A stretch of DNA of 64,000 nucleotides from a virus (taxonomy: Duplodnaviria; Heunggongvirae; Uroviricota; Caudoviricetes): positions 1-64,000 of IMG/VR virus record IMGVR_UViG_3300045988_145627. The stretch is one strand, 5' to 3'. Of the stretch, positions 39,763 through 64,000 are shown piece by piece. The position numbers and the translations under genes were made by a program. Position 1 is the first letter of the stretch. Each line of letters starts with the position of its first letter. Below the pieces are notes generated by a model. That model did no database searches. It was not told the origin of the DNA and was given only the letters and a program-made list of their open reading frames with translations.

Positions 39763-40233
39763 GTGAAAGCTGATTTGTCAAAAATCCCTTCTATTTCAGG
39801 AAATAACGGTTATTCACTTCGTTGTGAGGAAGTAAAGATAAACGGTGAGTCGGCATATTGCAGCTATTCCGTTTGCCAGCACACCATTCTTGCCTTCAAA
39901 GAAAACCGTCTTCCTCGAACTTCTTTCCAGTCGTGCGCAACCGCTATTAAAGCAGGCAAATGTAAGGCGTTAAAAATGATGGTTGAAGAGATTCGTAAAG
40001 GAGAATCTCTGTATTTCGCAGATATGACCGCACTCATTAAGGAGGTTGAAGAACGGAATAAACAAGCCAGATCTATAAAACGAAAACGTGACAGTGTAAC
40101 GATTAATAGCATGGTTAAGAAGAGCGCCACATCACAAACAGCGATCACTGACGTGTATGCGGCGTTGCTTGAAGAAACAACAAAAGAAACACATGAGCAA
40201 ATCGATCAACATATGGAGGCAAAACAACAATGA
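39763..40233 (+). CDS. hypothetical Cys-containing protein
   Basis: GTG start; N-terminal Cys cluster C..C..C....C; stop overlaps ligase start. Confidence 0.4.
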   Translation: MKADLSKIPSISGNNGYSLRCEEVKINGESAYCSYSVCQHTILAFKENRLPRTSFQSCATAIKAGKCKALKMMVEEIRKGESLYFADMTALIKEVEERNKQARSIKRKRDSVTINSMVKKSATSQTAITDVYAALLEETTKETHEQIDQHMEAKQQ

Positions 40234-41552
40234 AAAAGTTGATCGCACTTAAGCATAAGCTGGACGAAATGAAAGCTATGGGAACCAATGCAAAAAAAGA
40301 GGCATTGGCCAACATGGATGACTTTGAACAAAGCATGGTTTCATTGATGCTCAACCCTTTCATCCGTTTTGGGGTAAAGAAATACAAAGTGGCAGAGCCG
40401 CTTAGTGAGTCCGTCCCAAGTGACGAAAAAGCCATTGATGTACTGAATAAGCTGGCCTCTCGCGAGCTGACGGGGAACGCAGCAATAGCTGCTGTTGAGT
40501 CTATCGTGGCGTCAATGTGCGCCGATGGGCAGGACGTGTTCCGTCGTTTCCTCTTAAAAGACCCGAAAGCGGGTGTTGGGATTAGCCTATGCAACAAGGT
40601 TTTTGAAAATCCCATTCCGAAATTCGAGGTGCAGCTGGCGTCACCGTATAAAGAAAAAGGCGACAAATACCCCTTCAAGCCAAACCCTAAAGCAAAATGG
40701 CCGATGATTGGCAGCCTTAAGCTCGATGGTTTGCGAGTAATTTGCGAGGTTATTGTTGACGAAGAAGAGGTTAACTTCCTTTCTCGTACTGGTAATCCAA
40801 TCACGTCTCTCGATCACCTAAAGCCAGCCATGCTCGAATTAGGCAAACTTTCAGGCCACAAACACATCTTCTTCGATGGTGAAGGCACAGCCGGTTCATT
40901 TAACCAGTCCGTATCTGCATTGCGCAAAAAGAACGTGCAGGCAATTGGCGCTATTTATCATGTTTTCGACTTCTTCCTACCGGAATGGCGAGCACAGGCT
41001 AAATCCAAAGAGTATGCAAAGACATGTATGAAGCTGAAAGAGCGCCTGGCTATGCTCGTGGCGTTGTTCAAAAACGATCGCAGTGAAGGCTACGCACAAG
41101 ACATTCACCTGCATCCGTTCTACATCATCCATAGCCACGAAGACTTCATCGAACGCTTCATGAAACGCCTGGACGATAACGAAGAAGGGGAGATGGGCAA
41201 AGATCCGAACTCTGTTTACGAGTTTAAACGTACCCGCAGCTGGTGGAAGTTAAAAGACGAAGATTCAGAAGATGGTGAAATTATCGATTTTGAGCCGGGC
41301 GACCCGGACTCTGGTTTTGCCAACACGCTTGGAAAAATTGTTATTCGTCTTGAAAACGGCGTCATCGTTCGTGCGAGCGGCATTAAGCATAAATATCTGG
41401 ACGAGATCTGGAACAACAAAGAGAAGTACCGTGGTCGCATTGTCGAGGTTCATTGTCACGAGAAAACACCTGATGGCAGCTTACGCCACCCACGACTGAA
41501 ATGGCCGCGTTGCTTACGCGATACCGAAGATCGAATCGGAGATAAAGAATGA
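40230..41552 (+). CDS. ATP-dependent DNA ligase (phage type)
   Basis: Adenylation motif KLDGLR, FFDGE, WWKLK, C-terminal LRHPRLKW. Confidence 0.8.
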   Translation: MKKLIALKHKLDEMKAMGTNAKKEALANMDDFEQSMVSLMLNPFIRFGVKKYKVAEPLSESVPSDEKAIDVLNKLASRELTGNAAIAAVESIVASMCADGQDVFRRFLLKDPKAGVGISLCNKVFENPIPKFEVQLASPYKEKGDKYPFKPNPKAKWPMIGSLKLDGLRVICEVIVDEEEVNFLSRTGNPITSLDHLKPAMLELGKLSGHKHIFFDGEGTAGSFNQSVSALRKKNVQAIGAIYHVFDFFLPEWRAQAKSKEYAKTCMKLKERLAMLVALFKNDRSEGYAQDIHLHPFYIIHSHEDFIERFMKRLDDNEEGEMGKDPNSVYEFKRTRSWWKLKDEDSEDGEIIDFEPGDPDSGFANTLGKIVIRLENGVIVRASGIKHKYLDEIWNNKEKYRGRIVEVHCHEKTPDGSLRHPRLKWPRCLRDTEDRIGDKE

Positions 41553-41764
41553 TCGTATTAAGTAAACGGGAGAAAGAAACGCTTCATGAAATTAGTAAGT
41601 GGCCGGAGTTCCCTGAGTACTGGAAGCCTAAAACGCGAGCTAAGTTAGAGCGTTTAGGGTTGGTTGCAAACGTTTCTGAAACGTGGTGCTCGGCCAACTA
41701 CCAGTTAACTGATAAAGGGAAATTATTGCTACAGCAATTAGTAGAATCAAGAGCCTTTAAATGA
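41549..41764 (+). CDS. hypothetical small protein
   Basis: 71 aa, start overlaps ligase stop. Confidence 0.35.
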   Translation: MIVLSKREKETLHEISKWPEFPEYWKPKTRAKLERLGLVANVSETWCSANYQLTDKGKLLLQQLVESRAFK

Positions 41765-41910
41765 TTCCATACATCTCATTGGCTTTTATGGCTGGCTTCC
41801 TTATCGGCTTCGGCATCTGTCGTGATTTGATTAAGCAGGAACTTAAAACCAAAACACTGTGCATCGGGAAGCGTGTGTATCGGGTAGTTCATGAAACAAA
41901 GGTGAGAACA
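41761..41910 (+). CDS. small hydrophobic protein (49 aa), putative
   Basis: ATGA overlap at both ends; below track size cutoff; hydrophobic MIPYISLAFMAGFLIGFGIC. Confidence 0.3.
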
Positions 41911-42200
41911 TGAGCAATTTAACTTCTTGGGACTGGTGGTTGGTACACTATTTCTTAGCGGCCGGAGTCGCATTCGCCTTTTACGTAGGTCAGTTAGTCG
42001 TAAAACTGTTGCTGATTAAATTTGCTAGTCATAAACGTATCGATGATGGTCTGTGGCGTCTTGGCACCCTGGTGGAAACTCGCTACGGGCAACTTAAGGA
42101 GAACGAAACCATTACTATCCAAGCGAAACGATTCACTGCCACCATCACAAGAACACCTAGTCGTAGAGTGGCCTTGATCAAAAAAGTCACAACCGAATAA
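41910..42200 (+). CDS. small membrane protein
   Basis: N-terminal TM WWLVHYFLAAGVAFAFYV. Confidence 0.35.
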   Translation: MSNLTSWDWWLVHYFLAAGVAFAFYVGQLVVKLLLIKFASHKRIDDGLWRLGTLVETRYGQLKENETITIQAKRFTATITRTPSRRVALIKKVTTE

Positions 42201-42978
42201 AAACACAAAGATAAGTATTTACTTACTTATCTTTTATGTATAAGATGACTTTGTTTTCGTTGAGACGCGACTGTTTGAACTTAAATACAAGTGCAAACGA
42301 AGAAGTCTATCTGGCAGTAGCCTAATAAGCCAAACACCAGCGAGGTCAGTTTCCAGCCTCGTTACCGAAATGGGACACACTGAGCGAGTGTGATTGCAGA
42401 ACGCAGGAGGGAACATTCATGTTCCCTCCGATGAAGTAACAGAATGGGCGGTTGGTATATTTTCAACTCCATATGACTCCCGGATTCTTAGCCACTGACC
42501 GCCCATCCTGTTACGTCATTTTGTTCAATTATGTCGTTTATACTGGGTTAAAAAGCGGCGACGTAGCCCGGCTGGTATGGTTAGCCAGCACACAACGTTG
42601 AGGCCATTACATTTTTATTAATTCTAAGGTTCTATTCACAGAGATACCGGCGAGCGTTGATATGTAACATGTTGGGCAAACATTCAATCGGAGTAGTGGC
42701 CTCAACGTTGTGAAGACAGGATTGTTGTGTAGGTTTAACCACTGTTGCCATTGGTGCCTGTTTTCACAACAAATGATTCCATACATCACATTGTATAAAT
42801 TACAAAGTAGGTGCTGTCCTCAGAAACATCATCTACTTAAAGATTTTGCCTTCTACTATTGAGCGAAGTCGAAAGCGTCTGGCACTAACGAAAAGTGCAA
42901 GTAGCGGTGCGTTTCCTGGCAGAAACTAAACCGTCGCGATTGGCACTGTTGAGTAATAAATACTGGCAGTGCCGAATT

Positions 42979-43053
42979 GATGGTGTAGCTCAGCGGTAGA
43001 GCAGTTGGCTGTTAACCAACTGGTCGGTGGTTCGAATCCGTTAACCGGCACCA
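42979..43053 (+). tRNA. tRNA-Asn(GTT)-like, non-canonical T/acceptor stems (possible pseudogene or fragment)
   Basis: Canonical D arm GCTC-AGCGGTA-GAGC, anticodon arm GTTGG-CTGTTAA-CCAAC, T loop TTCGAAT, 3' CCA; T and acceptor stems need wobble pairs and mismatches. Confidence 0.45.
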
Positions 43054-43266
43054 ACACAACAGGAAAGAGCATTGAGAACCGCCGAGACTGCACTGTTTGA
43101 AGCGTAAGTCCGTGCAAACGTCATACAGTGCTCTTTTCGTTGTGGTGAATGCGGCTAAGCGCACGCGGGGAAATGGTTATATTGATCCTTTGTGATGTCT
43201 ATTGGCTCCGTCCACGGTGGATAACCAGCCAAAGGACACCGGGAAGCACCCGGCACCATAACAATT

Positions 43267-43353
43267 GGAGAGTAGGGAGCATGGTGCTCAAGCGGTCTTG
43301 AAAACCGTCCCATTGCGCAAGCGATGATGGTTCGATTCCATTACTCTCCGCCA
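43267..43353 (+). tRNA. tRNA-Ser (anticodon TGA), type II with long variable arm
   Basis: Acceptor GGAGAGT/ACTCTCC, anticodon loop CTTGAAA, T arm GATGG-TTCGATT-CCATT, 3' GCCA. Confidence 0.8.
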
Positions 43354-43508
43354 GACACAGCGTTGAGCGGTTTGGCCTTTTAATCAACTCGATTAAGACT
43401 CCGCTAACATAAACCAGACCGCTCAACGCTGTGATAGACAATTACGGCAGACGTTCTTAACCATAGCTTGCTAACATCCTAGCAACACTTTTTTTCAGCG
43501 CAAAATTC

Positions 43509-43532
43509 AAAGGGGCTTCGGCCCCTTTTTTG
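43509..43532. terminator. bidirectional intrinsic terminator
   Basis: AGGGGC-ttcg-GCCCCT flanked by A-run upstream and T-run downstream; between convergent tRNA locus and minus-strand gene. Confidence 0.7.
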
Positions 43533-43548
43533 AAAGCAATGGGCAAGT

Positions 43549-44883
43549 TCATGCCAAATTATCCAGATTTCTTTTCTTTTGTTCAATTATATTTCTCGCG
43601 CCAGAAAAAATTTTACTCAAAATAATTGATTTGCTTGCTCTATTATTAAGATGTAACAACGCGCTATAAAATACATAGTTATCTATTTTACTATTTAAAG
43701 TATTCCCAAGCTTCCCGTCATATATGCTATTAATAGTATTAAAATATACATGTTCAGGACCTATATTACAAATACCCCTATCAACTCGCTTTAAATAATG
43801 TTTAACTAAAGAAATAGCATCTTCCTTATCATTAATAACATAAAGTCCTGAGCGTTTACCCAGTTTGCTGTTCGAGAGCAATTTACAACCTACAAGCTCA
43901 CTTAACGTATCTTCAAAATTTTTCAACTCTTTGTCGGCGTTTTCCAGATAATGCTCAATCTCTTTCTCCATATTACTTATTAGAGAATTAAATTCTGCTC
44001 GTAACAAATCACCACCAGGTGATTTATAACTCCATAAAATTGAATTGGTAATACGTACTACGTCAGATACTTCTGGTTTCTCTGAATAGTTTTTGTATCT
44101 AGTGCAAATAATGCTGTGCTTTATATATTCTCTAACTAATGATCGATAATCCCTTTCGAAAAGGGTTTTGACATCTAGTCTTCCATTGCTTGTTGTTATT
44201 AGTGTGGTATTTAAAACTGGGTCGCCTTCAAAAAAATTATATTTATTTAGTAATCGTTTTAGCTTGTGTGAATTATGTGATGTTTCGCCATAATAATTTA
44301 GCCCAAAAATAGCAATTATTAGCATAACATCAGGAGTGATGAAATGTCGTAATTGCTCGGCATAAACTTTTTTCTCTTCGATTTTCGAAGATGGAGAGTA
44401 AAAACCTTTGTCTATATATTCTAATATTGAAACAATATTACTAACATAACGTATAAAAACTTGATTCATTACAACGGAACCATAAACCTGATGCAAATAA
44501 TCTACTCTCAAGTTGTTTTTTATTTTTTCCCCTGTGCTAGATGATAACTCTTCTTTTACCTGCCCAAGTAGCTTTTCGTGGTGCTCCAGCAATGTTTTAA
44601 ACCATTGTTCAAATGATGATTTTCTTGCCTCAGTTAATGAATCTGATGTTATCTGGACAGCTTTCATAGCTGCTTTCGCACTTTTCTTTGCTTCATAAGC
44701 GTTCCATGCTGTAGCACAAAAAGCTGCCGCCGTGATGCAACTGGTAAAAATAGAAATCCTATCTGCAACATTCAAGCTCCAGAACCAATCAGACGATGAA
44801 ATCAAAACCACAGATATTACGGGAACAATGAAAATCAAAACAGGCATGTATGTACTCGCTCTAATAGTTATTAGTCGAGGCAA
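43549..44883 (-). CDS. A+T-rich membrane-anchored protein of unknown function (candidate exclusion/abortive-infection factor)
   Basis: 444 aa; N-terminal TM helices (MPVLIFIVPVISVVLISS, ISIFTSCITAAAFCATAW), large soluble C-terminal domain; composition differs visibly from flanks. Confidence 0.55.
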   Translation of the reverse strand: MPRLITIRASTYMPVLIFIVPVISVVLISSSDWFWSLNVADRISIFTSCITAAAFCATAWNAYEAKKSAKAAMKAVQITSDSLTEARKSSFEQWFKTLLEHHEKLLGQVKEELSSSTGEKIKNNLRVDYLHQVYGSVVMNQVFIRYVSNIVSILEYIDKGFYSPSSKIEEKKVYAEQLRHFITPDVMLIIAIFGLNYYGETSHNSHKLKRLLNKYNFFEGDPVLNTTLITTSNGRLDVKTLFERDYRSLVREYIKHSIICTRYKNYSEKPEVSDVVRITNSILWSYKSPGGDLLRAEFNSLISNMEKEIEHYLENADKELKNFEDTLSELVGCKLLSNSKLGKRSGLYVINDKEDAISLVKHYLKRVDRGICNIGPEHVYFNTINSIYDGKLGNTLNSKIDNYVFYSALLHLNNRASKSIILSKIFSGARNIIEQKKRNLDNLA

Positions 44884-45025
44884 ATATTATATAAATCTCG
44901 TTATGATTTACAGACATGTATACGTATTGCTAATTATCACCAACAAATGATAGGTGTGTACATATTTATCATTTGTTGTAAAATTAATGTATACGCTATG
45001 AATACACTAATAATATGAGGTAATC

Positions 45026-45271
45026 ATGACTATCGTTATCTACGGACGAGATAACTGTTCATACTGCAAACGTGCGGTCGAGCTGGCGAAGCAACTAAAG
45101 GGACATGGCTACGGTGATTATGAGTACATCGACATCACCACTGCTGGTATCGACAAGGAAAAACTTAGTGAAATTGTTGGTAAACCGGTAGAGACTATCC
45201 CCCAGGTACTGATCGATGGCCAACCGATTGGCGGATACACAGAACTGGCTGCATACGTCAGCACCCTCTGA
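45026..45271 (+). CDS. glutaredoxin-like protein (NrdH/Grx)
   Basis: CSYC active-site motif near N-terminus, about 80 aa; RBS gaggt. Confidence 0.8.
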   Translation: MTIVIYGRDNCSYCKRAVELAKQLKGHGYGDYEYIDITTAGIDKEKLSEIVGKPVETIPQVLIDGQPIGGYTELAAYVSTL

Positions 45272-45276
45272 TTTTA

Positions 45277-45300
45277 ACGGCTCACAGGAGCCGTTTTTTA
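45277..45300 (+). terminator. intrinsic terminator
   Basis: CGGCTC-acag-GAGCCG followed by TTTTTT. Confidence 0.7.
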
Positions 45301-45482
45301 TTCCCACCAAACTCACACCTGTTTCCCTTAAAATTCAAAAAACAACATCTAAATGATTCCATACCTACTATGTATGGAATCATTACTGAAAATGAGTTAC
45401 TTTTACTCTTGATCCTATAAGAATCTATGCCTAATATACTGTTTACTTATACAGTGCATCGGCGTAACTCGGTGATTGTCAT

Positions 45483-46586
45483 ATGAAAAATAGCTTTGAC
45501 AGAGCACGCGCTGCGGAGAACACCTCAAAAGAGGCGATTGAGTATCTCGAAAGAGCATCTCAAATGCAGGCCGTTATGATCTCCCAGGTCAGCAATGACA
45601 TGAGATTCTCGGACGCATTCATGTTATTCACTCGCTTATCTCTGCTGATAACAAGACGTCGGCCAGAGATCGCTGTTCATTGTATTTTGATACATGTTTT
45701 GCCGCACATTGCCGATGTAAAAGTAAGTGATATTAATAGGTTCATGGTGAACCAACTGGTCAACCCACTAATACTGGATGGCAAAATTGTTATGGGTCGC
45801 CGCGTTTTCTCTCTGATGAAGCAGTTCCTCAGCTGGTGCGCCTTCCAGGGGATGATCGACGTGTCACCGTTAAACGATATGTCACTTAACAAAGTTGCCG
45901 GTGGCGCAAAGCCCACACCTCGCGAGCGGAAGCTAACCGACGCAGAGGTATGGGTGTTCTGGAATATATGGGACTACTTCAATGTGTGTGCTGGTACAAA
46001 ATGGGCGGCCAGGCTATGTCTTGTATCCGCAAGACGACCTGACGAAGTACTGCGGGCTAAAAAAAGTGAGTTCAACCTCCAGCGTGGGGTTTGGAATCAA
46101 GGCAAGAGAAACAAATCAGCCCGTGAGCATTCTCTGCCTTTAAGCACATTAATGCGCACATGCATTGAAGAGTTATTCGAATATGGTAAAGGCAGCCAGT
46201 GGCTTGTGCCTTCGAATAAAAAAATCGGGAAAGATCTTCCGATGTCTAAAGTGGCAATAGCCCAGGCATTACGCCGTATCCTGGAACGACCAGAACTGAT
46301 GGAGCTTGAGCCATTTACACCACGAGATTTGCGTCGTACTGCGCGTAGTTACTTCCCAGCATTAGGCATAAGCCAGGAGGTATCACGTAAAATCATGAAC
46401 CACAGTCTTGAGGGGATAGATCGGGTCTACGACCGGCACGATTATATGGACGAGATGCGAGACGCCTTAGAAAGTTTCTCGACGTACATCGCATCAATCG
46501 TAGAGCAACCGGATTTAGACGAAATTGACCACAAATTCAAGGGAGATCGTCTATCGACAGAGCTTATTCGTGTAAATTTTTCATAG
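45483..46586 (+). CDS. tyrosine recombinase (integrase/resolvase family)
   Basis: C-terminal catalytic region with RRPDE..., FTPRDLRRTARS, NHSLEG..RVYDRHDY (Tyr nucleophile context). Confidence 0.7.
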   Translation: MKNSFDRARAAENTSKEAIEYLERASQMQAVMISQVSNDMRFSDAFMLFTRLSLLITRRRPEIAVHCILIHVLPHIADVKVSDINRFMVNQLVNPLILDGKIVMGRRVFSLMKQFLSWCAFQGMIDVSPLNDMSLNKVAGGAKPTPRERKLTDAEVWVFWNIWDYFNVCAGTKWAARLCLVSARRPDEVLRAKKSEFNLQRGVWNQGKRNKSAREHSLPLSTLMRTCIEELFEYGKGSQWLVPSNKKIGKDLPMSKVAIAQALRRILERPELMELEPFTPRDLRRTARSYFPALGISQEVSRKIMNHSLEGIDRVYDRHDYMDEMRDALESFSTYIASIVEQPDLDEIDHKFKGDRLSTELIRVNFS

Positions 46587-46967
46587 AGACTTTATGGCCT
46601 CAACAACCTTTTGTGATGCGCCTTTCTCTTTACCGAATCGCTCGTTATATGCAGCAAGAACCTGTTTTTCGTCCTCGTTAAGAGGAGCAGTGCCTTCTTT
46701 GTATAAAAATGCTGCGAGTTCGGGTTGGCGTTCTTCCAGCACCATCATCATAAGACGACTTGGCTCAATACCCAGTGCCAGCGCCAGCGGACGAACCTTA
46801 TCGATAGGCAAAGGAATTTTGCCGCTTTTAATTAAAGAAAGGTTGTTGGCGTTTTTATACCCAATTGTTTTGGCTATCTGGGCCTGGCTCATAGGTGAGG
46901 ATTCAATCAACCCTGCGATAAAAGCAGCGTAGCGACTTTCTATAAATTCAATCTTGTTGTCAGACAT
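46581..46967 (-). CDS. XRE-family HTH transcriptional regulator (repressor-like)
   Basis: HTH MSQAQIAKTIGYKNANNLSLIKSGK; divergent from downstream plus-strand operon. Confidence 0.7.
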   Translation of the reverse strand: MSDNKIEFIESRYAAFIAGLIESSPMSQAQIAKTIGYKNANNLSLIKSGKIPLPIDKVRPLALALGIEPSRLMMMVLEERQPELAAFLYKEGTAPLNEDEKQVLAAYNERFGKEKGASQKVVEAIKSL

Positions 46968-47218
46968 TGTTACAACCTTTGCGCGTTCAATTCTCTCTGG
47001 TAAGTGCTTACCGATATTACATCAAAGGTTAGGGTTGTAAAGCTATTATCATTTTTTTCGGCAGGCACTTTAAAGACCGGACAAAGACCAATGCATGGTG
47101 AAAAACTAGCCCCAAATAGGTAAGAAAATTAACTTGCATCTAATATGGATGTATTCAGTATTGATATAAATTTTAGTAGTATTCCTTACAATAGTATAAG
47201 TAAGAATGGATTGATTGA

Positions 47219-47431
47219 ATGAACACCACTATTTCCAGCCTAATAGCTCTTGAGATCGGACACGTACAAAAATTAGCTGATGAGTGTGTAGCTGACATCC
47301 TCACCGAGCTACCGAATGAGCAGATTGAGGTTGGTGTGAATGACACAACTGGCTTTATATTCGAACTTAACAACAAACGCTTCACGCTTATCAATACCGG
47401 CTCCGGGTCTTTAGCCGTCAGAACCTGTTAA
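47219..47431 (+). CDS. hypothetical small protein
   Basis: 70 aa ORF in divergent promoter region. Confidence 0.3.
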   Translation: MNTTISSLIALEIGHVQKLADECVADILTELPNEQIEVGVNDTTGFIFELNNKRFTLINTGSGSLAVRTC

Positions 47432-47529
47432 TCCCTCTTCTACCTGCGCGAATGGCTTAGTTCCCTGTTCGCGCAGTGCTACATTAAACACACTAGTAAA
47501 TAATTTGTTTTCATAACAAAGGATTAGCC

Positions 47530-49638
47530 ATGTCCAAAAAACGTTCCATCAAAGAGGTTCAGGACTTCCGTGACAGTGTAAAACGAGTAGTCGCTCTCCT
47601 TTCAGGTAAAAACATCCCTGTTGCAGAACGAGGGGACGACGCTTATGTACGCTATAACGATGATGGAGAGCCAATTCTCGTAAACATCCCATCAATCCCA
47701 GATAACGCAACACCGGCATTGATGAATGCAGTACGCGGATTTCTAGATCATGAAGTTGCTCACATTTTGTTTACCGATATTCATGTGTCCAACAAAATGA
47801 GAGAAAAAGGACACGTCCCTTCCTGGTCACTATGGAATGCCTTAGAAGACGTGTTCATCGAGCGAAAAATGGGGCAGGTCTTTAACGGAACAAGACGTAA
47901 TCTGATGGCAACTCAGCGCCTGATAATCGAAAAAGTCTTTAAACCAAAGGCTTCAGAGGCTATTACTTATTGTGGCAAAGATCAGCGCGCGCTTTTTCTA
48001 AACTTCTTTCTCTGTCCGGTTGTAAGAGCCTGGGATGGCCAAGCACCGTTCGTAGATTTCATGGATGAATACTGGCCTGTCATTGAGAAACCAATTTCAT
48101 TATTAAAAGAACATGGTATCGATGTGGCCGTGCGTAACATGTCTTGCACGGAGGATTGTTTAAAGGTGGCTGCGACCATAGCTAAGATCCTCAAAGACAC
48201 AGAAAGTGAAAGCAAAGGTAAGGAGTCAGCTCCGGGAAAAACTCCCGATCCTTCAGACGCTGACCAAGCGGATTCCTCTGGAGAAAGTAATGAAGACAAT
48301 GAAGATCACAAGACACATGAGATGCTAGATAATCACATATCTATAGATGATGAGTCACACGGTAAGTACATACATGATGATAACGATAGTGATGATTCAG
48401 ATAATTCTGAATCATCAGAAACAATATTCGATGATACAAAAAATGATAAAGAGGTATTAGATTCTGATACTTCCAATAGCGCGACGACAGAAGCAACTAC
48501 CTCGGATCACGAAAAAAGAAAAACGGCAGAAGACGGCTCTTCAGACATTCCCACTCCGTCCAAAATGAGTCTGGAAGAGGCTTTAGAGGAGCTTGATAGC
48601 ATGGAAGATGAAGTCGGAGGCATGACAGAAGATGCACTATCCGAAACGATTAAAAGCGAGTTAACAGAAAGCTCGAAAAGCGAATACAGGCCATACAATC
48701 GCTCATACGACTTCATCGGTTCGATTGATCAGGCAGAAGCCCATATCAAACGGCTTATTAAAACATTCTCCGATATTGATTTAGGTGGATATCCAATCAG
48801 CCGTTATCGCATCGTTCCTGAAGGCAACCAACTCTTCGACAAATATATTGAAAAGCATCTTTCGTCAGGTGTTTCGTCGACGCTGGCAAAAGACCTGGAG
48901 CGTGCAATTGCAAGCAGAAACAGAGTTCAGTTTATACCGGGCCAGCGTCGGGGGCGCATTCATGGTTCTAGTATCTACAGATTAGCAATGAATGATGATC
49001 GCGTGTTTCGTAAAAAAGAAGAATCTAAGGCCGTTAACGCCTGTGTTCAACAAGTGATTGATTTATCAGGTTCAATGAGCGGCGAAACGATTAAACTGGC
49101 TCTTGCAAGTGCATATACCATCGCCGATGCGCTTGATCGAATAAATGTTCCCAACATTATCACCGGCTTCACAACATTTGGTAGTCATATGGCAGCAGGA
49201 GAGCTTAAGGCAATCAAGTATGAGTTCTCTCGCTTTGAATCTTTAATGCTACCTATCATCAAAAATTGGAATGAAAAGGCAAATTCTCGCGAAGTTCGCT
49301 CACGTATGGGGTGCGTAGGCTACACATTCCCACTTCTTAATAACGTGGATGGTGAAAGCATAGCCAGCCTTGCATCGTTATTTTCTGGTCGCATGGAGGA
49401 CAAGAAGATCATGCTTGTTCTAAGCGATGGCGCGCCGTGGGCTGTTGGGAGAGGTTTTGACGCTCATTTGCGTTCGGTTGCGAAGCAAATTGAAACGCAG
49501 ACTGACATTGATTTGATGGCAATTGGCATCATGACTGACGCACCGGAGAGATTTTACGCAAACCATGCCCTAGTAACGAGCGTTGATAGTCTTGGTTCAT
49601 CTGTAGTTACTGAACTATCTCGTATCATTTTGAAGTGA
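47530..49638 (+). CDS. von Willebrand factor A domain protein (CobT-like) with acidic low-complexity insert
   Basis: MIDAS motif IDLSGSMSGE; Asp/Ser/Glu-rich stretch DDNDSDDSDNSESSE. Confidence 0.75.
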   Translation: MSKKRSIKEVQDFRDSVKRVVALLSGKNIPVAERGDDAYVRYNDDGEPILVNIPSIPDNATPALMNAVRGFLDHEVAHILFTDIHVSNKMREKGHVPSWSLWNALEDVFIERKMGQVFNGTRRNLMATQRLIIEKVFKPKASEAITYCGKDQRALFLNFFLCPVVRAWDGQAPFVDFMDEYWPVIEKPISLLKEHGIDVAVRNMSCTEDCLKVAATIAKILKDTESESKGKESAPGKTPDPSDADQADSSGESNEDNEDHKTHEMLDNHISIDDESHGKYIHDDNDSDDSDNSESSETIFDDTKNDKEVLDSDTSNSATTEATTSDHEKRKTAEDGSSDIPTPSKMSLEEALEELDSMEDEVGGMTEDALSETIKSELTESSKSEYRPYNRSYDFIGSIDQAEAHIKRLIKTFSDIDLGGYPISRYRIVPEGNQLFDKYIEKHLSSGVSSTLAKDLERAIASRNRVQFIPGQRRGRIHGSSIYRLAMNDDRVFRKKEESKAVNACVQQVIDLSGSMSGETIKLALASAYTIADALDRINVPNIITGFTTFGSHMAAGELKAIKYEFSRFESLMLPIIKNWNEKANSREVRSRMGCVGYTFPLLNNVDGESIASLASLFSGRMEDKKIMLVLSDGAPWAVGRGFDAHLRSVAKQIETQTDIDLMAIGIMTDAPERFYANHALVTSVDSLGSSVVTELSRIILK

Positions 49639-49733
49639 TTAGAATAGCCTTAATGATAAGTAATCACTTACGATATTTGATGGTATATTTATATAAGAAG
49701 TTGAAAGCTCATTAGAAAACAAAGGAAAAACGC

Positions 49734-50969
49734 ATGACTACTACTGCACTGCAAAATGAAAAAAATCCTTCTGATTACCTTGTTTGCAAGTGGTGCGGAA
49801 AATCATTTCACTATTTTAAGTCCCATGTAGCCAATGGTAATTGCGAGGGCATTCCTGAGTCAGTAAAAGATGCCGATCCTGACACCGTACTGAAAATGTA
49901 CACAACGCAGTTTCCAGATGAGCCAACGCTATCGAAAAAGGCACTTGATGCAATTCAAGCTAAACGTGCCGAGCAAAAAAGCGAAATGGCCAAATCATCT
50001 GGCGTGACCAATAGCCCAGGCTATACAGGCACAGTTGAGTACAAGACAGATCTGGTCGCAGCTCACGAACTGCTAAATGTAACGGTGAAAGAACTCGGAA
50101 CAAAACGTGGGACGCCGCTCATGGTTAGCGTCAACGTCAATACGCCGTTTCCAGAGTTCGTTCCAGAAGTGAAGAAGGGATACGTATATGGCGACTTCGA
50201 ACTGATCAAAGACATTTTCATGATGCTTGAACTTGGCATACCAGGCTATTTGTGGGGTCATGCAGGAACAGGCAAATCTTCATTGCCTACACAACTATGT
50301 GCTTTGCTCAATCGTCCGTTAATCCGTGCCCAACATACAGCATCAATGGAAGAGGCTCATGTTACGGGACAAATTCTGGCGCGTGATGGCTCTACGTATT
50401 TCGAGCCTGGCTTGCTTGCGCTCGCAATGAAGCATGGCTGGGTTTACCTCGCGGATGAATACGACTTTGCGTTTCCACAGATTCTTGGCGTGTATCAGCC
50501 AGTGCTGGAAGGTGAAGCGTTGGTCATCAAAGAGGCGACTCCAGAATGGCGTCGCATTACTCCGCATGAACGGTTTGCTTTCATTGGCACTGGCAACACG
50601 AACGGATCTGGTGATGAAACCGGCTTGTACCAGGGTACAAACATCCAGAACGCCGCTAACTTTTCGCGTTTTGGCATCGTTTCGAATGTGAAATACATGA
50701 GCAAAGAGGCAGAGATCAGCATGTTGATAAATGCTGGCATCGTGGATGAATACGCTGAAAAGATGGTTAAGTTTGCCGGTATCGTTCGCGATGGATACGA
50801 AGAACACCTGATCAGTCAGCCGATTGGCCCTCGTGAACTTTTGTTGTCGGCCAAGATTGGAATGATGCGAGGCGACTTTGTGACAGGTATTGAGCGTTCT
50901 TTCATTAACAAACTCCCTTCAGCTTCTGCGCAAGCGGCACGTGAAGTTGTTCAAAAAATATTTGGTTAA
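49734..50969 (+). CDS. AAA+ ATPase (MoxR/CobS-like) with N-terminal Cys cluster
   Basis: Walker A GHAGTGKSSL, Walker B YLADEYDF; CKWCGKSFHYFKSH...C. Confidence 0.75.
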   Translation: MTTTALQNEKNPSDYLVCKWCGKSFHYFKSHVANGNCEGIPESVKDADPDTVLKMYTTQFPDEPTLSKKALDAIQAKRAEQKSEMAKSSGVTNSPGYTGTVEYKTDLVAAHELLNVTVKELGTKRGTPLMVSVNVNTPFPEFVPEVKKGYVYGDFELIKDIFMMLELGIPGYLWGHAGTGKSSLPTQLCALLNRPLIRAQHTASMEEAHVTGQILARDGSTYFEPGLLALAMKHGWVYLADEYDFAFPQILGVYQPVLEGEALVIKEATPEWRRITPHERFAFIGTGNTNGSGDETGLYQGTNIQNAANFSRFGIVSNVKYMSKEAEISMLINAGIVDEYAEKMVKFAGIVRDGYEEHLISQPIGPRELLLSAKIGMMRGDFVTGIERSFINKLPSASAQAAREVVQKIFG

Positions 50970-50971
50970 TC

Positions 50972-51175
50972 GTGCGTAAAGGATGTTTCGGCTCTCTTAT
51001 CGCTGCTTCTGAAACTGGCAAGGCTTGCCTGGTGTGTCCAGACAAGCCCGATTGTCACCAATCAGCAAAAGAAGTTGCGATTTCGATGTATGGGAAGTTC
51101 GTAGGCTTCCCCAATGACAAAATCAAAAAAACCAGAAAGGTAAAAACACATGAAGGCTCTGATGGTTCGAACTGA
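50972..51175 (+). CDS. small Cys-rich protein, putative
   Basis: 67 aa ORF with CxxC pairs; overlaps start of polymerase gene. Confidence 0.3.
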   Translation: MRKGCFGSLIAASETGKACLVCPDKPDCHQSAKEVAISMYGKFVGFPNDKIKKTRKVKTHEGSDGSN

Positions 51176-54100
51176 CTTCTCTCTTGGGGAGTCGGCTCTA
51201 AAAGCAGAAAACGCGGTGAAGATTGCCAGAGAAGCTGGCTACACCGCTGTAATTTCGGCAGATAGCATGAATATTGCGAGTGTTATTCCACTACAACGTG
51301 CCGCTGGTGACGACATGGCGGTTATTTGTGGTGTGAAACTAAACATTGTTGATGATCCCACATACGAGCACCGGGCTAAACTTGCTAAAGAGTCTATGGG
51401 ATGTATGGAATCATTAGAGCGTGGGCGGAACTACTCCTTTACCGCTCTAATTAAAAATGAGCAGGGATATCGAGACATCTGCGAACTAATGACGGCGGCC
51501 AACACACGAGAACAGTTCTACTTTGTACCGCGTCTCTCGCTCGAACAGTTGGTTTCTACATATGCCAAAGGCAACATCATCCTGCTCACTGCCGACATCG
51601 GTAGCGTGTTCCAACGCAACGATTTTGCAAAAATCATAAGCTCACTGATTACAGCGGGTGGAAAAGACAACTTCTATAGTGTGGTTTATCCGCACCCTAC
51701 CCCATTCTACGACCAGATTAACGTCCGGGCGATGAAAGTCGCCAGCGCACTGAAAATAGAGCCAGTAGCGTTCTATCCCGCTTATTACGAATCGATCGAC
51801 GATGCAGACATTAAAGACATTGCGCACATGGTTACGAACAACATCAAAATCGACCAGCCGCATCGTCTGCGTATCCCCCACCAGCGAGATAACGCCGTCA
51901 ATGGTCGCCGCCATCTCCTTGAGGCGCTGAAAGCCTTCTCCGTTCGCATGGATGTGCCGGTAACAGCTGCAATGGCCTCAACAACGCAGGATACCATTAT
52001 CGATGCCTGCACATGGCGCTGGCATGAATTGCCACCAGCACTGCCAAAGATGGCAGACGACGAGCCTGCAACGCTGATGAAACTGGCCGTTGCTGGGCTG
52101 CGTAAACGTCTTACCACAAAAGAGTTTGGCTACACACCACCGGCTTCTGAGAACAGGGTTTATGTTGAGCGACTTAAGTACGAAATGGACACGCTTACTC
52201 GCCTGGGATTTTGTGGTTACTTCCTGATGGTACGCGATCTGATGAATCACAGCCGTGAAACTGGCATTCCTGTCGGGCCTGGTCGTGGTTCCTCCGCTGG
52301 CTCTTTGGTGGCATGGTGCATAGGCATAACCAACGTCGACCCTATCCGTCACGGTCTTCTGTTTGAACGTTTCATCAACCCTGAGCGTCTCGACTTGCCA
52401 GATGCGGACTTGGACTTCAGCCAGGCACGTCGCCATGAGGTGATCGAGTATCTGAATGAACGCTACGGCGAAGATTACGTTGCAGGCATTCCGAACTTCA
52501 CCTACCTGGGCGCGGCCTCTGCACTACGTGACACCGCTCGTATTTATGGTGTGGAGTCCGCAGATATGGCGGTATCAAAAGAACTGAAGAACGTCGAGGA
52601 TGATAGCCTTCCATTGGAAGAGCTGCGCGAACAACTGGCAAGCCTCGACAAATACGCGACAAAATATCCTGATGCATTCAATGCAGCCTGCAAGTTACAA
52701 AGCCTTATGCGTGGCTATGGTAGACATGCGGCAGGGATGATCGTAGCAGGTGTTCCTCTGACAGAACGAACACCGGTTGAACGACGTGGTGACGCGCGTT
52801 GTATCGCATTTGACAAGCGTTACTGCGAGGCTATGGGCCTAATTAAGCTGGACGTACTTGGCCTGGCGACTCTCGATTTGCTCGATAGTGCAAAACGCTA
52901 CATTAAAGAGAACACAGGTGAGGATATCAATCTTGATGCCATTTCTCTTGAAGATCGCAAGGTGCTGGATGGTTTTGCTGCTGGGTACACTCAAGGTGTT
53001 TTCCAGCTTGAATCAGGCCCAATGCGCAAGCTGCTTAAAGATTTAGGTGGTGGAATTGAGCCAATGAGCTTTAAAACGGTCGTTGCTACGACTGCGCTCT
53101 TCCGGCCGGGGCCAATTCAGTCAGGCATGTTGGATGATTATGTTTCTGTCGCCAAAGGCTTTATGACGCCGGAATCATTACACCCCGTTCTTGATGAACT
53201 TACCGCAGAAACAAATGGCGTGATTCTTTATCAGGAACAGACGATGAACGCGACTCGATTGCTTGCGGGCTTCACAATGGCTGAAGCTGACGGCGTTCGT
53301 AAAGCGATCGGCAAAAAAGACATGGAGAAAATGAAGAGCATGGGTGAGAAGTTCATCGTTCAGGCTCAAGCTGGCTGGATAGACGTTGAGCTGGAAGATT
53401 GCACTACACAGCGCATTCACCGTGCGGAACATTTTAAATGCGAAGACGGAACACTGAAAACTGTCGAAGAGGCGCTTGAACACGGCGCAAAACTACCTAT
53501 AAACGCAGTACGCGTGACAGCGTCACACCCAGGGCTATCAGAGATGAAAGCGAAGGAGATCTGGACCGCATTCGAAAAAAATGGTGCCTACCAGTTCAAC
53601 AAATCACACTCTGTTGCTTACTCCTTGATCAGTTATCAATCTATGTGGTTGAAAACTCATTATCCCGCAGAGTTTTTCGCTGCTGCTCTCACTATTCTTG
53701 GCGAAGATAAACACCAGGGGCTGGTTAAAGATGCGCTGACCTATGGTATTCGCGTATTGCCACCAGACGTTAACGTGTCATCCAACCGAATCGAGATCCG
53801 CACGCTTGAAGATGGCAGCCAGGTGCTGTATGCGCCCTTCTCTGCTGTGAAGGGGTGTTCTGAGAATGGCTGCCAAGCCATCATGAGAGCGCGAGAAAAA
53901 GTTGGCGGCAAATTCGAGTCACTGGCGCAATTCGAAGAAGCTGTCGAGAAACGTGCCTGTAATAGTCGAGTGCGCGAATCGCTGCAAAAAGTAGGGGCGT
54001 TTGCATCCATCGAGCCAGGTAGTCTGCCAGCAACTGATCCAGAGCGCCTACGCGACCAGGCTGAATTGATGGGAAACCTTGTCATAGACGCAGTTAAAGC

Positions 54101-54668
54101 CTCACGTCCGTTTGAGATGAACCCCAAACGTTCGGCTGAGATTAACGTGCTCATGACACGGATGGCGGCTGAAATGGGCTTAGGTGATGAACTAATCCGC
54201 CCCAGCATTGGTATTAAGCCGAAAATCATGATCATTCTGGACAATGCGAACGGCAATGATGCTCGAACCGGTTACTTTATGGAGAACGGATACGACGATT
54301 TTAAGGCCAAGCTATTGACGGCTGGAGATTTACGCATGGGCGATCTCTATGTCACAGGCGTTTGCAAGAAGGTTAAAGACAAAGAAAAAGACTACACCAA
54401 AGACGAGATCGGCCAGTTCACCGACTTTATGCGTGAAGAGATCAATCTGGTGCGTCCAACCTATGTGCTGACGTGTGGCAGCCGGGCGACATCGCTCTTC
54501 AACAACAAGAGCAAACCATCCGACCTGGTTGGACGCAAAGAGTATCTGCCGGAGCTGGATGTGACTGTTTTCTACGGATTTAACCCGAATATTTTGTACT
54601 TTCACCCAGAGGAAGGCGAAAAGCTGGAAGCAATTCTTGCAGAGGTAGCGGAGACTATTAGCAAATGA
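51150..54668 (+). CDS. dnaE: DNA polymerase III alpha subunit-like replicative polymerase (DnaE family)
   Basis: 1172 aa; palm-region motif GPGRGSSAGSLVAWCIGITNVDP. Confidence 0.85.
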   Translation: MKALMVRTDFSLGESALKAENAVKIAREAGYTAVISADSMNIASVIPLQRAAGDDMAVICGVKLNIVDDPTYEHRAKLAKESMGCMESLERGRNYSFTALIKNEQGYRDICELMTAANTREQFYFVPRLSLEQLVSTYAKGNIILLTADIGSVFQRNDFAKIISSLITAGGKDNFYSVVYPHPTPFYDQINVRAMKVASALKIEPVAFYPAYYESIDDADIKDIAHMVTNNIKIDQPHRLRIPHQRDNAVNGRRHLLEALKAFSVRMDVPVTAAMASTTQDTIIDACTWRWHELPPALPKMADDEPATLMKLAVAGLRKRLTTKEFGYTPPASENRVYVERLKYEMDTLTRLGFCGYFLMVRDLMNHSRETGIPVGPGRGSSAGSLVAWCIGITNVDPIRHGLLFERFINPERLDLPDADLDFSQARRHEVIEYLNERYGEDYVAGIPNFTYLGAASALRDTARIYGVESADMAVSKELKNVEDDSLPLEELREQLASLDKYATKYPDAFNAACKLQSLMRGYGRHAAGMIVAGVPLTERTPVERRGDARCIAFDKRYCEAMGLIKLDVLGLATLDLLDSAKRYIKENTGEDINLDAISLEDRKVLDGFAAGYTQGVFQLESGPMRKLLKDLGGGIEPMSFKTVVATTALFRPGPIQSGMLDDYVSVAKGFMTPESLHPVLDELTAETNGVILYQEQTMNATRLLAGFTMAEADGVRKAIGKKDMEKMKSMGEKFIVQAQAGWIDVELEDCTTQRIHRAEHFKCEDGTLKTVEEALEHGAKLPINAVRVTASHPGLSEMKAKEIWTAFEKNGAYQFNKSHSVAYSLISYQSMWLKTHYPAEFFAAALTILGEDKHQGLVKDALTYGIRVLPPDVNVSSNRIEIRTLEDGSQVLYAPFSAVKGCSENGCQAIMRAREKVGGKFESLAQFEEAVEKRACNSRVRESLQKVGAFASIEPGSLPATDPERLRDQAELMGNLVIDAVKASRPFEMNPKRSAEINVLMTRMAAEMGLGDELIRPSIGIKPKIMIILDNANGNDARTGYFMENGYDDFKAKLLTAGDLRMGDLYVTGVCKKVKDKEKDYTKDEIGQFTDFMREEINLVRPTYVLTCGSRATSLFNNKSKPSDLVGRKEYLPELDVTVFYGFNPNILYFHPEEGEKLEAILAEVAETISK

Positions 54669-62634: not shown

Positions 62635-62682
62635 ATGCAAACTGACTGCGGCACGTTCCGCAGTCATATTTCATAGTCGTCA

Positions 62683-63214
62683 CCGCTGACAGCATACACA
62701 ATCAACTACCGCTGATAGCATATCGAGAGTCTATCTCACCGCTCACAGCATACTTTACTCGATTTTTTACCGCTGACAGCATACTTAAGACATTGCATGA
62801 ATAATGTGTACCGGTATGGGTATAACCAGAACAAAATTACCGCTGGCAGCATACGAAGGTCTGACATATACCATTAATTACCGCTGATAGCATATCCAAA
62901 CAAAAATTCCTCAATAAAACACCGCTGACAGCATACGTTCTATCAGGGAGCAGCAGGCAATAAATGCCTTTCACTACAAGCAATCAGCGCAATAGCAATA
63001 GAATGTTAGTGAGCGCAAACCTATATGGAATGCACTCTTCGAGGTTAGTAACCACTGGGGAGGTATGACAGAGCATTGAGTGGTGATAGATGATTTACCG
63101 CCCACAGCATACGTTCATCTCACTATACCGCTGGTAGCATATCTTTAACCGTTCACAGCATACTTTTCAGAAAAATAGCCGCTGATAGCATACATTTCAC
63201 CGCTGACAGCATAT
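62683..63214. repeat. iteron array: 12 direct copies of 15-bp CCGCTGA(C/T)AGCATA(C/T), putative plasmid replication origin
   Basis: Copies at 62683, 62709, 62739, 62770, 62840, 62881, 62922, 63098, 63128, 63149, 63179, 63200 in two clusters; adjacent to rep-like gene. Confidence 0.85.
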
Positions 63215-64000
63215 CAAAGCAGTTTGAGACTATTGGAAAGGATCTCAATCATCTTGATATTTTCAGGCGTCAAATTCTGCGAAAGTTCGGTTATCTTGTT
63301 GATAATGTTCTGTTTGGCATCAATTTCCCCAGCTTTCTCATCTAGTTTTTTGGGTTCGATGTCTTCAGGTTTTGGCGGTGCGACTTTGAGTTTTGGATTG
63401 CGGCTGTGAATCTGGATATAGATCGACCGCCCTCGTTTAATCTCGCTGTATTCGAGATAACCCAAATCTTGGAGAGCTTTTAAGCCGTTGCGTATAGTCT
63501 GATTCTGCGAGCTGACATTCCTGCTACTCAAATTGAGTCGCGCACGCAATCGAGCAAGCGACACCGGCGCAGGCTTGGTTGGAAGACTTTCGATGAAGGT
63601 GTACAGAGCCTGTGCTGTTTCTTTGCGTGGTAGCTTATTGATAACCTTTAACTGCAAAAGAACCTTATGGTCAAAGCGATATAGTTCGGCCAGCTTCGGT
63701 TCTGCATAGAACACCACCGTATCTTTCTGCTCGTTGTAGTCCACGCTATTGATGAGGTGCACCATCAGAAGCGAGATCTTGTTAGAGCCGTCGACGTTCT
63801 TTTCTTCATACGTTCTCTGGAAAGACAGAGTTGTACGCATGATCTTCAAAAGACTGTTTGTAAGCCGGTCGCGGAGTGTTTTGCGGATCTGTGACGATGG
63901 ATAGCCACAAAACTTCGCAAATTTCGTGATGCTTAACTCGACACGACCGTTAGGTTCGCCGTATTCTGCCAGCGAACGCACAACGCCCACCCACGTTTTG
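63214..64000 (-). CDS. replication initiator (iteron-binding Rep-like, winged helix), 5' end may lie beyond window
   Basis: ORF open to window edge; basic Lys-rich N-terminus and helix-rich LPRKETAQALYTFIESL segment; abuts iteron array. Confidence 0.6.
   Translation of the reverse strand, partial: KTWVGVVRSLAEYGEPNGRVELSITKFAKFCGYPSSQIRKTLRDRLTNSLLKIMRTTLSFQRTYEEKNVDGSNKISLLMVHLINSVDYNEQKDTVVFYAEPKLAELYRFDHKVLLQLKVINKLPRKETAQALYTFIESLPTKPAPVSLARLRARLNLSSRNVSSQNQTIRNGLKALQDLGYLEYSEIKRGRSIYIQIHSRNPKLKVAPPKPEDIEPKKLDEKAGEIDAKQNIINKITELSQNLTPENIKMIEILSNSLKLL

Follow-up and report, generated by a model that had tools for sequence, protein, structure and literature searches.

An arm-sharing palindrome beside a tyrosine recombinase gene and inward-facing lone copies of its arm in SSU5/pHCM2-type phage-plasmids

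Among described site-specific recombination systems, Cre/loxP of phage P1 and the single-recombinase Xer system XerH/difH come closest to the locus reported here, in which a palindrome stands just 5' of a tyrosine recombinase gene and lone copies of the palindrome arm lie at a distance on either side. The locus belongs to a 64,000-nucleotide stretch of DNA, positions 1 to 64,000 of the IMG/VR virus record IMGVR_UViG_3300045988_145627 (hereafter the window), which is an SSU5/pHCM2-type phage-plasmid. Likenesses to both systems include inverted 12-13-bp arms around a short asymmetric center, placement of the site just 5' of the recombinase gene on a low-copy phage-plasmid, a two-domain protein without an arm-binding domain, and an expected role in multimer resolution or circularization. 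The locus also departs from Cre/loxP in several ways: the central region of loxP is 8 bp long, compared with 7 bp here, the lone half-sites proposed here have no Cre/lox counterpart, and lambda Int, Tn1549 Int, and Xer resemble the window recombinase in fold far more closely than Cre does.

Extra recombinase-binding motifs beside an inverted-repeat core are known from the Tn4430 TnpI site and from integron attI1, both of which carry DR1 and DR2 repeats. Those repeats lie within ~100 bp of the core and on one side of it, whereas the copies in the window flank the palindrome at distances of 0.7-6 kb, mirror one another in orientation, and are in part located in essential genes. The R64 Rci/sfx shufflon offers another parallel, as its sites consist of a single conserved 12-bp arm beside a 7-bp spacer, but the window system shows no inversions, its spacers are unshared, and a symmetric site coexists with the lone copies. 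XerD-only dif-like sites (XDS) are described for the Bacillus subtilis replication terminus, where XerD unloads SMC complexes before they arrive at dif (PMC11840125). The likeness lies in extra recombinase sites that surround a main site and are put to a non-crossover use (PMC11840125), and the layout of isolated arm-like sites around a main recombination site is seen here as well, with copies S1 and S2 to the left and S5 and S4 to the right in the window, and likewise in a second clade; XDS, however, are chromosomal and serve the two-recombinase Xer system of the host. MrpR (YopR) of SPbeta, a temperate phage protein with a tyrosine recombinase fold, binds a 15-bp element repeated genome-wide (PMC10516654), but it has lost its catalytic residues and its sites lie in promoter regions, whereas in the window system the putative active-site motifs are kept, a palindromic core is present, and most lone copies lie inside genes.

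Our literature searches returned the motif strings only as coincidental primer matches and never in the present context, and they uncovered no maintenance or recombination site for SSU5/pHCM2/pMT1-type phage-plasmids. The recombinase-site pair described below is itself of a kind already known. What is new is the presence, in two clades, of inward-facing candidate half-sites standing alone in essential genes, for which the searched literature describes no counterpart on plasmids or phages.

The palindrome and the adjacent recombinase

The original prediction for this DNA described a 13-mer, AATGATTCCATAC, recurring at four loci, once as a palindrome and once inside the gene for the alpha subunit of DNA polymerase III. 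Exact copies are indeed present at 41760-41772 (S1), 42772-42784 (S2), and 45352-45364 on the forward strand and at 45372-45384 and 51403-51415 (S4) on the reverse strand, the last within dnaE as claimed. Only the reverse arm of the palindrome had been misplaced, at 45371-45383, and the spacer is accordingly 7 bp long (CTACTAT, 45365-45371) rather than 6. These five exact copies compare with none in each of 100 dinucleotide-preserving shuffles, so the recurrence is not a matter of chance, and a search allowing two mismatches found no extra copies in the window. Because the motif was found neither elsewhere in the 64-kb window nor in bases 55000-104999 of the close relative Cyrano, the cluster is local, spanning 9.6 kb of a ~108-kb genome.

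In the window, the palindrome has a 13-7-13 geometry and stands 99 bp 5' of the recombinase start codon. Relatives were gathered through CobT (77) and through the recombinase itself (~70 loci); loci are labeled L with a number below. The recombinase homologues surveyed range from 43 to 100% identity, and every one with a defined site (~135 loci on phage-plasmids and ordinary plasmids) has a 12-7-12 palindrome just 5' of the gene. The palindrome was found at a distance of 76-285 bp in nearly all of ~65 genome loci and in all viral-contig loci reaching the site, and the same geometry was seen in 143 loci. The exceptions are L151 and L152, which are the most distant or partial matches, and L158, a Photorhabdus element with imperfect arms. 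Homologues bearing the palindrome extend to non-phage plasmids of Erwinia, Pantoea, Rahnella, Ewingella, Hafnia, and Chimaeribacter. The arms do not vary within a clade, unlike the central 7 bp, for which CTACTAT, CTATTAA/TTAATAG, TTGGTAG, and TTGTAAG were among the variants seen. Recombinases at least 57% identical to that of the window go with the arm TGATTCCATAC, including one on a Chimaeribacter plasmid without phage genes, and those of 52% identity or less go with TGACTCCAGAC; hybrid sites are present in L111, L139, L142, and L146.

Since the arm sequence switches with the recombinase clade, the palindrome is very probably the cognate core site of the adjacent tyrosine recombinase, as judged from comparison of these sequences. 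It shows the features of a simple inverted-repeat core site, namely arms of 11-13 bp, an asymmetric center of 6-8 bp, and coupling to a recombinase across evolution. Of the two roles entertained in the original prediction, that of a recombination site is borne out at the palindrome by its retention upstream of recombinase homologues and by arms that follow the recombinase clade. The other, a tie to the XRE repressor, fares poorly: the palindrome is kept on non-phage plasmids, and two that we inspected have no XRE gene beside the recombinase.

The palindrome also coincides with an edge of variable DNA. In alignments with 80 relatives, blocks of homology stop near 43039 or 43532 and start again at 45014-45353, and in many independent lineages the sequence shared between relatives starts from the left edge of the palindrome (45347-45353). 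Among 36 Escherichia coli-type loci with a CTACTAT center, the 60 bp to the right of the site form one cluster (96-100% identity) and the 60 bp to the left form seven, with a pairwise identity of left flanks of 0.69 in the first 30 bp and ~0.4 beyond 60 bp. The distance from S2 to the palindrome varies from 1192 to 6253 bp among relatives. This footprint points to the palindrome as a recurrent breakpoint for cargo swapped on its left. It supports one part of the proposal that the motif copies delimit a tRNA/accessory island, in that the palindrome is the right boundary (seven left flanks against one right flank in the 36 loci), but the lone copies are not boundaries. In particular, the copy at 42772, put forward as an island edge, is embedded in conserved sequence extending as far as the tRNA-Asn gene at ~43039, and the variable DNA extends from the tRNA genes to the palindrome. 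No motif copy was found inside this variable region in any relative, and on that ground an integron-like cassette system was rejected.

The recombinase itself matches Pfam family PF00589 (Phage_integrase; score 39.5 bits, curated cut-off 27.1, E 6.3e-10) and PHROG 1 (integrase, E 1e-46). Against solved structures, a single-sequence search gave no match and a profile search gave only a marginal domain match. An AlphaFold2 model of the protein has a mean predicted local distance difference test (pLDDT) score of 80.6, and Foldseek of this model placed the core-binding and catalytic domains of lambda Int (1z1b) first (probability 1.00, E 1.1e-7), followed by Tn1549 Int, XerA, XerD, and XerH (E in the range of 1e-7 to 1e-4), with Cre chains at E 0.03-0.3. 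As modeled, the fold is one of two domains, core-binding and catalytic. The N-terminal 56 residues are poorly conserved, and because they are helical the protein is predicted to have no lambda-type arm-binding domain. The putative active-site motifs ARRPDE, NKS, RDLRR, and NH and residue Y316 are conserved in 16 homologues, the residues being assigned by motif position. Two more specific assignments were rejected. The Cre/loxP family proper is disfavored by Cre E values far behind those of lambda Int and Xer and by the 7-bp center, and a lambda-type integrase with arm-type sites is disfavored by the lack of an arm-binding domain and by lone copies that equal the core arm and stand 0.7-6 kb off, whereas arm-type sites differ from the core sites and cluster within ~250 bp. 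Sequence and model together suggest a simple recombinase with an inverted-repeat core site, similar in kind to Cre/lox or a single-recombinase Xer system and outside the Cre family.

A putative promoter lies between the palindrome and the recombinase gene (Table 1), and its -10 element is overlapped by a LexA-box-like sequence, TACTGTTTACTTATACAGT (45437-45455); the window has no other box of this type. Right flanks of E. coli-, Klebsiella-, and Salmonella-type loci conserve both the promoter block and CTGT-N8-ACAG; the LexA-like box is absent from Nissabacter, Providencia, Xenorhabdus, and the inspected non-phage plasmids. The sequence of this region suggests that the recombinase is under SOS control. 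At their other ends, the recombinase gene and the XRE-type gene, a putative repressor gene, converge with a 6-bp overlap (46581-46586 in the window), and both phage-plasmid clades retain the convergent arrangement. Transcription of the recombinase gene under SOS induction would continue into the repressor gene in the antisense direction and could serve as an induction switch. To the left of the palindrome, at a distance of 10-27 bp from the arm, otherwise unrelated flanks (L001-L150) carry a (C)AGA(A)TTT...AAA element, which may be an accessory site or the site of an accessory protein. Some Pantoea plasmids carry AGAATGGC on either side of the site.

Conservation and polarity of the lone copies

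The identity of the lone copies extends beyond the 13-mer. The original prediction had noted this for the two forward copies, and it reaches further than was claimed: a 15-mer, ATGATTCCATACATC, is common to all three lone copies (41761-41775 and 42773-42787 on the forward strand, 51400-51414 on the reverse), and the palindrome arms match it over the first 12-13 bases only. A degenerate sixth copy, S5, lies inside the recombinase gene and in most Klebsiella-, Salmonella-, and Serratia-type relatives reads TTGATTCCATACATC (one mismatch) or TTGATTCCATACATT (two). All lone copies lie 0.7-6 kb from the palindrome, S1 and S2 on its left and S5 and S4 on its right, and all face inwards, each in the orientation of the palindrome arm on the same side. 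Sequence inspection revealed no second arm at the correct spacing beside any of them. When 7-9-mers from the arm were scanned across the window, no KOPS-like skew was found, and GC skew shows no switch at the palindrome.

Each of the three exact copies is far more conserved than the DNA around it. At S4 the 12-mer is exact in 74 of 74 loci and the 15-mer in 73, with a mean column entropy of 0.01 against 0.56 in the flanks. The corresponding counts at S2 are 57 and 54 of 60 loci (entropy 0.11 against 1.41 and 1.17 in the two flanks), and at S1 they are 52 and 51 of 54 (0.04 against 0.70 in both flanks). S5 is looser than the other copies, with an entropy of 0.34 against ~0.7 in its flanks, and is partly explained by a conserved W-x-Q-G. 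The copy in dnaE is especially informative at the level of codons. Codons 85-88 read TGT ATG GAA TCA in 51 of 51 distinct sequences, codon 84 is either GGA (Gly) or AGA (Arg), each of which preserves the motif bases, and neighboring third positions have an entropy of ~1 bit. Distant DnaE proteins have unrelated residues at the S4 position and the same length, and the motif therefore appears to have been written into an existing loop rather than inserted. These patterns show nucleotide-level selection on the lone copies. They do not reflect a duplicated gene start, as had been suggested: only the copy at 41761 opens a conserved open reading frame (ORF), the dnaE copy is antisense, and the idea fails because the copy at 42773 has no conserved reading frame in relatives.

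From the reference phage SSU5 itself (L003, 15942-16358), the cargo, palindrome, recombinase, and XRE-type gene are all missing, but the lone copies are kept, with a point change in S2 (ATGATTCCGTAC). The junction of this deletion, between tRNA-Asn and cobT, occurs in 0 of 585 related plasmids; because it is unique, we regard the loss as recent, and it says nothing about whether the lone copies are independent of the enzyme. The deletion probably explains the virulent-phage behavior of SSU5. An exact scan of viral contigs with the 15-mer returned many further matches besides the known phage-plasmid loci.

An analogous layout is seen in a second clade, made up of phage-plasmids of Providencia, Xenorhabdus, and Morganella, in which the order recombinase, XRE-type gene, cobT, dnaE is kept. 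No exact lone copies of the arm of this clade, TGACTCCAGAC, were found there. An exact 12-mer, TGACTCCCGATC, is present in fully diverged flanks just after the helicase gene on the forward strand and within cobT on the reverse strand, and it matches the arm of this clade at 9 of 11 positions, including both positions at which the arms of the two clades differ. A complete 103,352-bp Providencia plasmid contains TGACTCCCGATC exactly twice, 3.2 kb to the left (forward) and 6.0 kb to the right (reverse) of the palindrome. Its positions are 481 and 13086 in L084, 6584 and 13132 in L085, 12980 in L107, 2748 and 13109 in L132, 13091 in L133, and 12906 and 22158 in CP096299. The cobT copy encodes DRES with fixed codons (GAT CGG GAG TCA) and is the sole conserved island of a hypervariable CobT linker in five genomes. 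We also observed that TGACTCCCGATC contains a GATC (Dam) site. Over both clades, six of six sites face the palindrome, for which the chance is (1/2)^6 = 0.016 if the sites are independent. The lone copies are restricted to phage-plasmids, none being found on non-phage plasmids within 10 kb of the site.

Proposed role of the lone copies and its rivals

We propose that a recombinase dimer binds the palindrome, that two palindromes pair, and that strand exchange takes place within the central 7 bp. Recombination of this kind would resolve multimers of the ~108-kb phage-plasmid and could circularize incoming DNA, and crossovers with other replicons bearing the same site would give rise to the differing left cargo of otherwise near-identical relatives. 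S1, S2, and S4, along with the decayed S5, would be isolated half-sites, each binding a single recombinase molecule. We infer binding of a monomer because the lone copies are identical or near-identical to the arm and follow its clade-specific bases, and as the partner arm is missing they could not serve as crossover sites. On the sequences compared here, we somewhat favor the assignment of the lone copies as recombinase half-sites, and we extend the same modest preference to the combined reading of the palindrome as core site together with these half-sites.

Much more tentatively, and partly by analogy, the lone copies may act as outposts of the palindrome. A recombinase molecule bound at a lone copy would show its outer face to something tracking towards the site, such as the replisome, a translocase, or condensin. 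A tracking mechanism of this kind would fit better than passive looping, because orientation matters even at kilobase distances. Half-sites in essential replication genes (dnaE, cobT) might then flank the site, in two clades and with different sequences, as polar outposts that stop, unload, or signal, a role that we put forward as conceivable rather than probable.

Several considerations weigh against this proposal, in which every functional step draws on comparative sequence evidence. The covariation of site and enzyme is thin because the change of arm amounts to about one evolutionary event plus a few hybrids, and the position of the first catalytic His is occupied by Arg throughout the recombinase family (16 homologues), so activity is presumed. 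In both clades the plasmid replication gene is ~15-20 kb away from the palindrome rather than on the opposite side of the plasmid, which weakens a simple replication-terminus picture. The scan of non-phage plasmids covered 10 kb around the site. Finally, certain bases are common to the lone copies and missing from the palindrome (ATC following the arm in the clade of the window, C8/T11 in the distant one), and this lone-copy-only signature could reflect a different reader or a different mode of binding.

A different reader is the alternative that survives best, although we consider it improbable. The lone copies would be operators recognized by another phage-plasmid protein, either the XRE-type protein or the 71-residue product encoded beside S1, with a specificity overlapping that of the arm. 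Besides the bases that only the lone copies share, the distribution is compatible with such a reader, as lone copies and the XRE-type gene go together in both phage-plasmid clades and two inspected non-phage plasmids are without such a neighbor. The C1 repressor of P1 provides a precedent for asymmetric operators scattered over a phage-plasmid. An independent reader would, however, leave unexplained why its sites mimic the recombinase arm along with its two clade-specific changes. Most copies lie in coding sequence, far from promoters, the palindrome is kept without an adjacent XRE gene in the inspected plasmids, and better-placed candidate operators exist in the window in the form of AAACAAnTTGTTT upstream of operons. 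These AAACAAnTTGTTT palindromes occur at 2326, 31837, 35064, 47495, and 61080, one of them (47495-47525) just 5' of cobT, and they are better candidates than the 13-mer for operators of a phage repressor or activator.

Pairing between RNAs is a further alternative, and an unlikely one. Genes in this region run rightwards, so that RNAs containing S1 or S2 are complementary over 15-20 nt to those containing S4 or S5, and sense transcripts across S1 and S2 could in this way pair with the dnaE and recombinase mRNAs and control replication genes, much as c4 antisense RNA does at P1 immI. The two copies of the distant clade are also exact complements in sense transcripts, and S2 lies in a conserved non-coding stretch. 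Yet RNA pairing would not account for the identity of the copies to the recombinase arm, and the bases that follow the 15-mer show no co-variation when copies are compared within genomes, positions 16-18 occurring in all four S2/S4 combinations. Neither is there support for a structured RNA: no Rfam family was found at any copy at gathering or permissive thresholds (only tRNAs and, elsewhere, a sub-threshold STnc100-like match), and folding eight diverged S2 regions to a consensus yielded a weak 8-pair helix 5' of the motif (-1.66 kcal/mol). The palindrome, moreover, lies 5' of the putative recombinase promoter and 3' of the glutaredoxin terminator. The conserved non-coding stretch around S2 (42200-42980) also carries a 20-nt inverted repeat (42591-42610 and 42693-42712) that has no match in Rfam.

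We judge an inversion system to be no less unlikely. Here the lone copies would be asymmetric crossover sites of the sfx type, each consisting of one conserved arm and one free arm on either side of a 7-bp spacer, and inversion between them would flip the 9.6-kb segment, either as a switch or for concatemer formation in the style of the 2-micron plasmid. The conserved 12-bp arm followed by ATC suits the sfx layout, left and right copies are mutually inverted, S1 and S4 of Cyrano share seven post-arm bases (ATCTCAT), and the recombinase promoter has a LexA-like box. The predicted products are nonetheless missing. Junctions of an S1xS4 or S2xS4 inversion were found in 0 of 194 E. coli/Shigella plasmids and in none of the plasmids in a search of 72,556, and all 55 loci holding S1, S2, and a right-hand copy are collinear, so that these data show no recombinant between lone copies of the kind implied by the original prediction of cassette exchange. 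Bases after ATC usually differ among the copies of one genome, and a flip would disrupt dnaE here and cobT in the distant clade. With a single orientation seen throughout, a shufflon or invertible segment was rejected.

That the copies are passive, whether by chance, coding constraint, gene-start duplication, or as scars of insertions at the palindrome, is contradicted by the conservation data and deserves hardly any credence: although S5 owes something to W-x-Q-G and S1 codes for MIPYI, shuffles contain no copies, synonymous sites are fixed while a neighboring amino acid varies, the non-coding copy is equally conserved, DnaE has no insertion or deletion at the site, insertion scars would leave arms pointing outward rather than inward, and an analogous pair arose elsewhere in the genome in the second clade.

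Genomic setting and implications

Escherichia phages CMS-2020a and Cyrano are the records closest to the window; the Klebsiella and Salmonella relatives are more distant. The features of the locus are collected in Table 1. S1 overlaps not only the start codon listed there but also the stop codon of the upstream 71-residue ORF.

Table 1. Features of the palindrome locus, with positions in the window
Feature	Position	Strand	Description
ATP-dependent ligase gene	40230-41552		Followed by a 71-residue ORF, a 50-residue hydrophobic ORF (starts at S1), and a 96-residue ORF
Lone copy S1	41760-41775	+	AATGATTCCATACATC; ATG is the start codon of the 50-residue hydrophobic ORF 41761-41913
Non-coding DNA, ~780 bp	42200-42980		Contains S2; followed by tRNA-Asn and tRNA-Ser genes, AbiC-like gene, glutaredoxin gene, and palindrome
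Lone copy S2	42772-42787	+	AATGATTCCATACATC; conserved non-coding stretch, ~190 bp 5' of tRNA-Asn (42979-43053)
Variable cargo	43533-45351		AbiC-like gene 43549-44883 (-) and glutaredoxin gene 45026-45271 (Pfam matches); right edge is the palindrome
A/T-rich flank	45330-45351		AAAATTCAAAAAACAACATCTA; directly left of palindrome
Palindrome (probable core site)	45352-45384		Left arm AATGATTCCATAC 45352-45364; center CTACTAT 45365-45371; right arm GTATGGAATCATT 45372-45384
Putative recombinase promoter	45409-45455	+	TTGATC 45409-45414, 17 bp, TAATAT 45432-45437; 3' of palindrome
Tyrosine recombinase gene ('Int', 367 residues)	45483-46586	+	Presumed binder of the 13-mer arm
Degenerate sixth copy S5	46086-46100	-	TTGATTCCAAACCCC; 11 of 15 bases; inside recombinase gene
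XRE-type gene	46581-46967	-	Convergent with recombinase gene; followed by cobT-like and AAA-type genes and dnaE (51150-54668)
Lone copy S4	51400-51415	-	AATGATTCCATACATC; inside dnaE (51150-54668), codons 84-89 (G C M E S L), antisense strand

Further observations concern the surroundings of the locus and other parts of the window. Between the two tRNA genes, 43121-43289 matches the small RNA family STnc100 just below threshold (43.4 bits against a gathering score of 47) and resembles phage P1 too. Positions 43356-43433 and 46580-46604 both carry a motif resembling GGCCTCAACGTTGTG. The probable origin of plasmid replication is next to repA, at 62675-63216, where ACCGCTGACAGCATAC is present in eight iteron-like copies. 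Hairpins rich in A/T, GATAAGTAAGTA...TACTTATC, form a family with members at 4266, 7689, 11265, 17757, 24676, 28897, 34282, 38847, 42203, 56407, and 59927; the hairpin at 42203-42235, the sole one checked against the ORF map, lies at an operon end, and the family may represent terminators or regulator sites used in common. Positions 26801-28338 are made up of coding repeats (GGTAATGC.GC.AC.GC.AC.AA..T.CAGAC...) that recur every 120 bp and resemble the repeated domains of a tail-fiber-type gene. In a promoter and terminator scan, matches were no more numerous than in shuffles.

Phage-plasmids of the SSU5/pHCM2/pMT1 type are common in clinical Enterobacterales, and ~585 plasmids of one public collection share this region. 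Some members of the group carry resistance genes, an example being pECOH89 with CTX-M-15 (PMC3999498). The recombinase-site pair is conserved across many genera, has two natural arm specificities, and points to the place at which cargo is exchanged, making it a candidate orthogonal tool for genome engineering as well as a marker for tracking cargo swaps. Beyond the site itself, a signal that freezes synonymous codons of dnaE, is mirrored about the site, and arose independently in a second clade suggests a non-recombination job for a tyrosine recombinase. If the lone copies do act as outposts of the palindrome, plasmids and phages would have, at their own scale, an equivalent of Ter or XDS sites that relies on a tyrosine recombinase.

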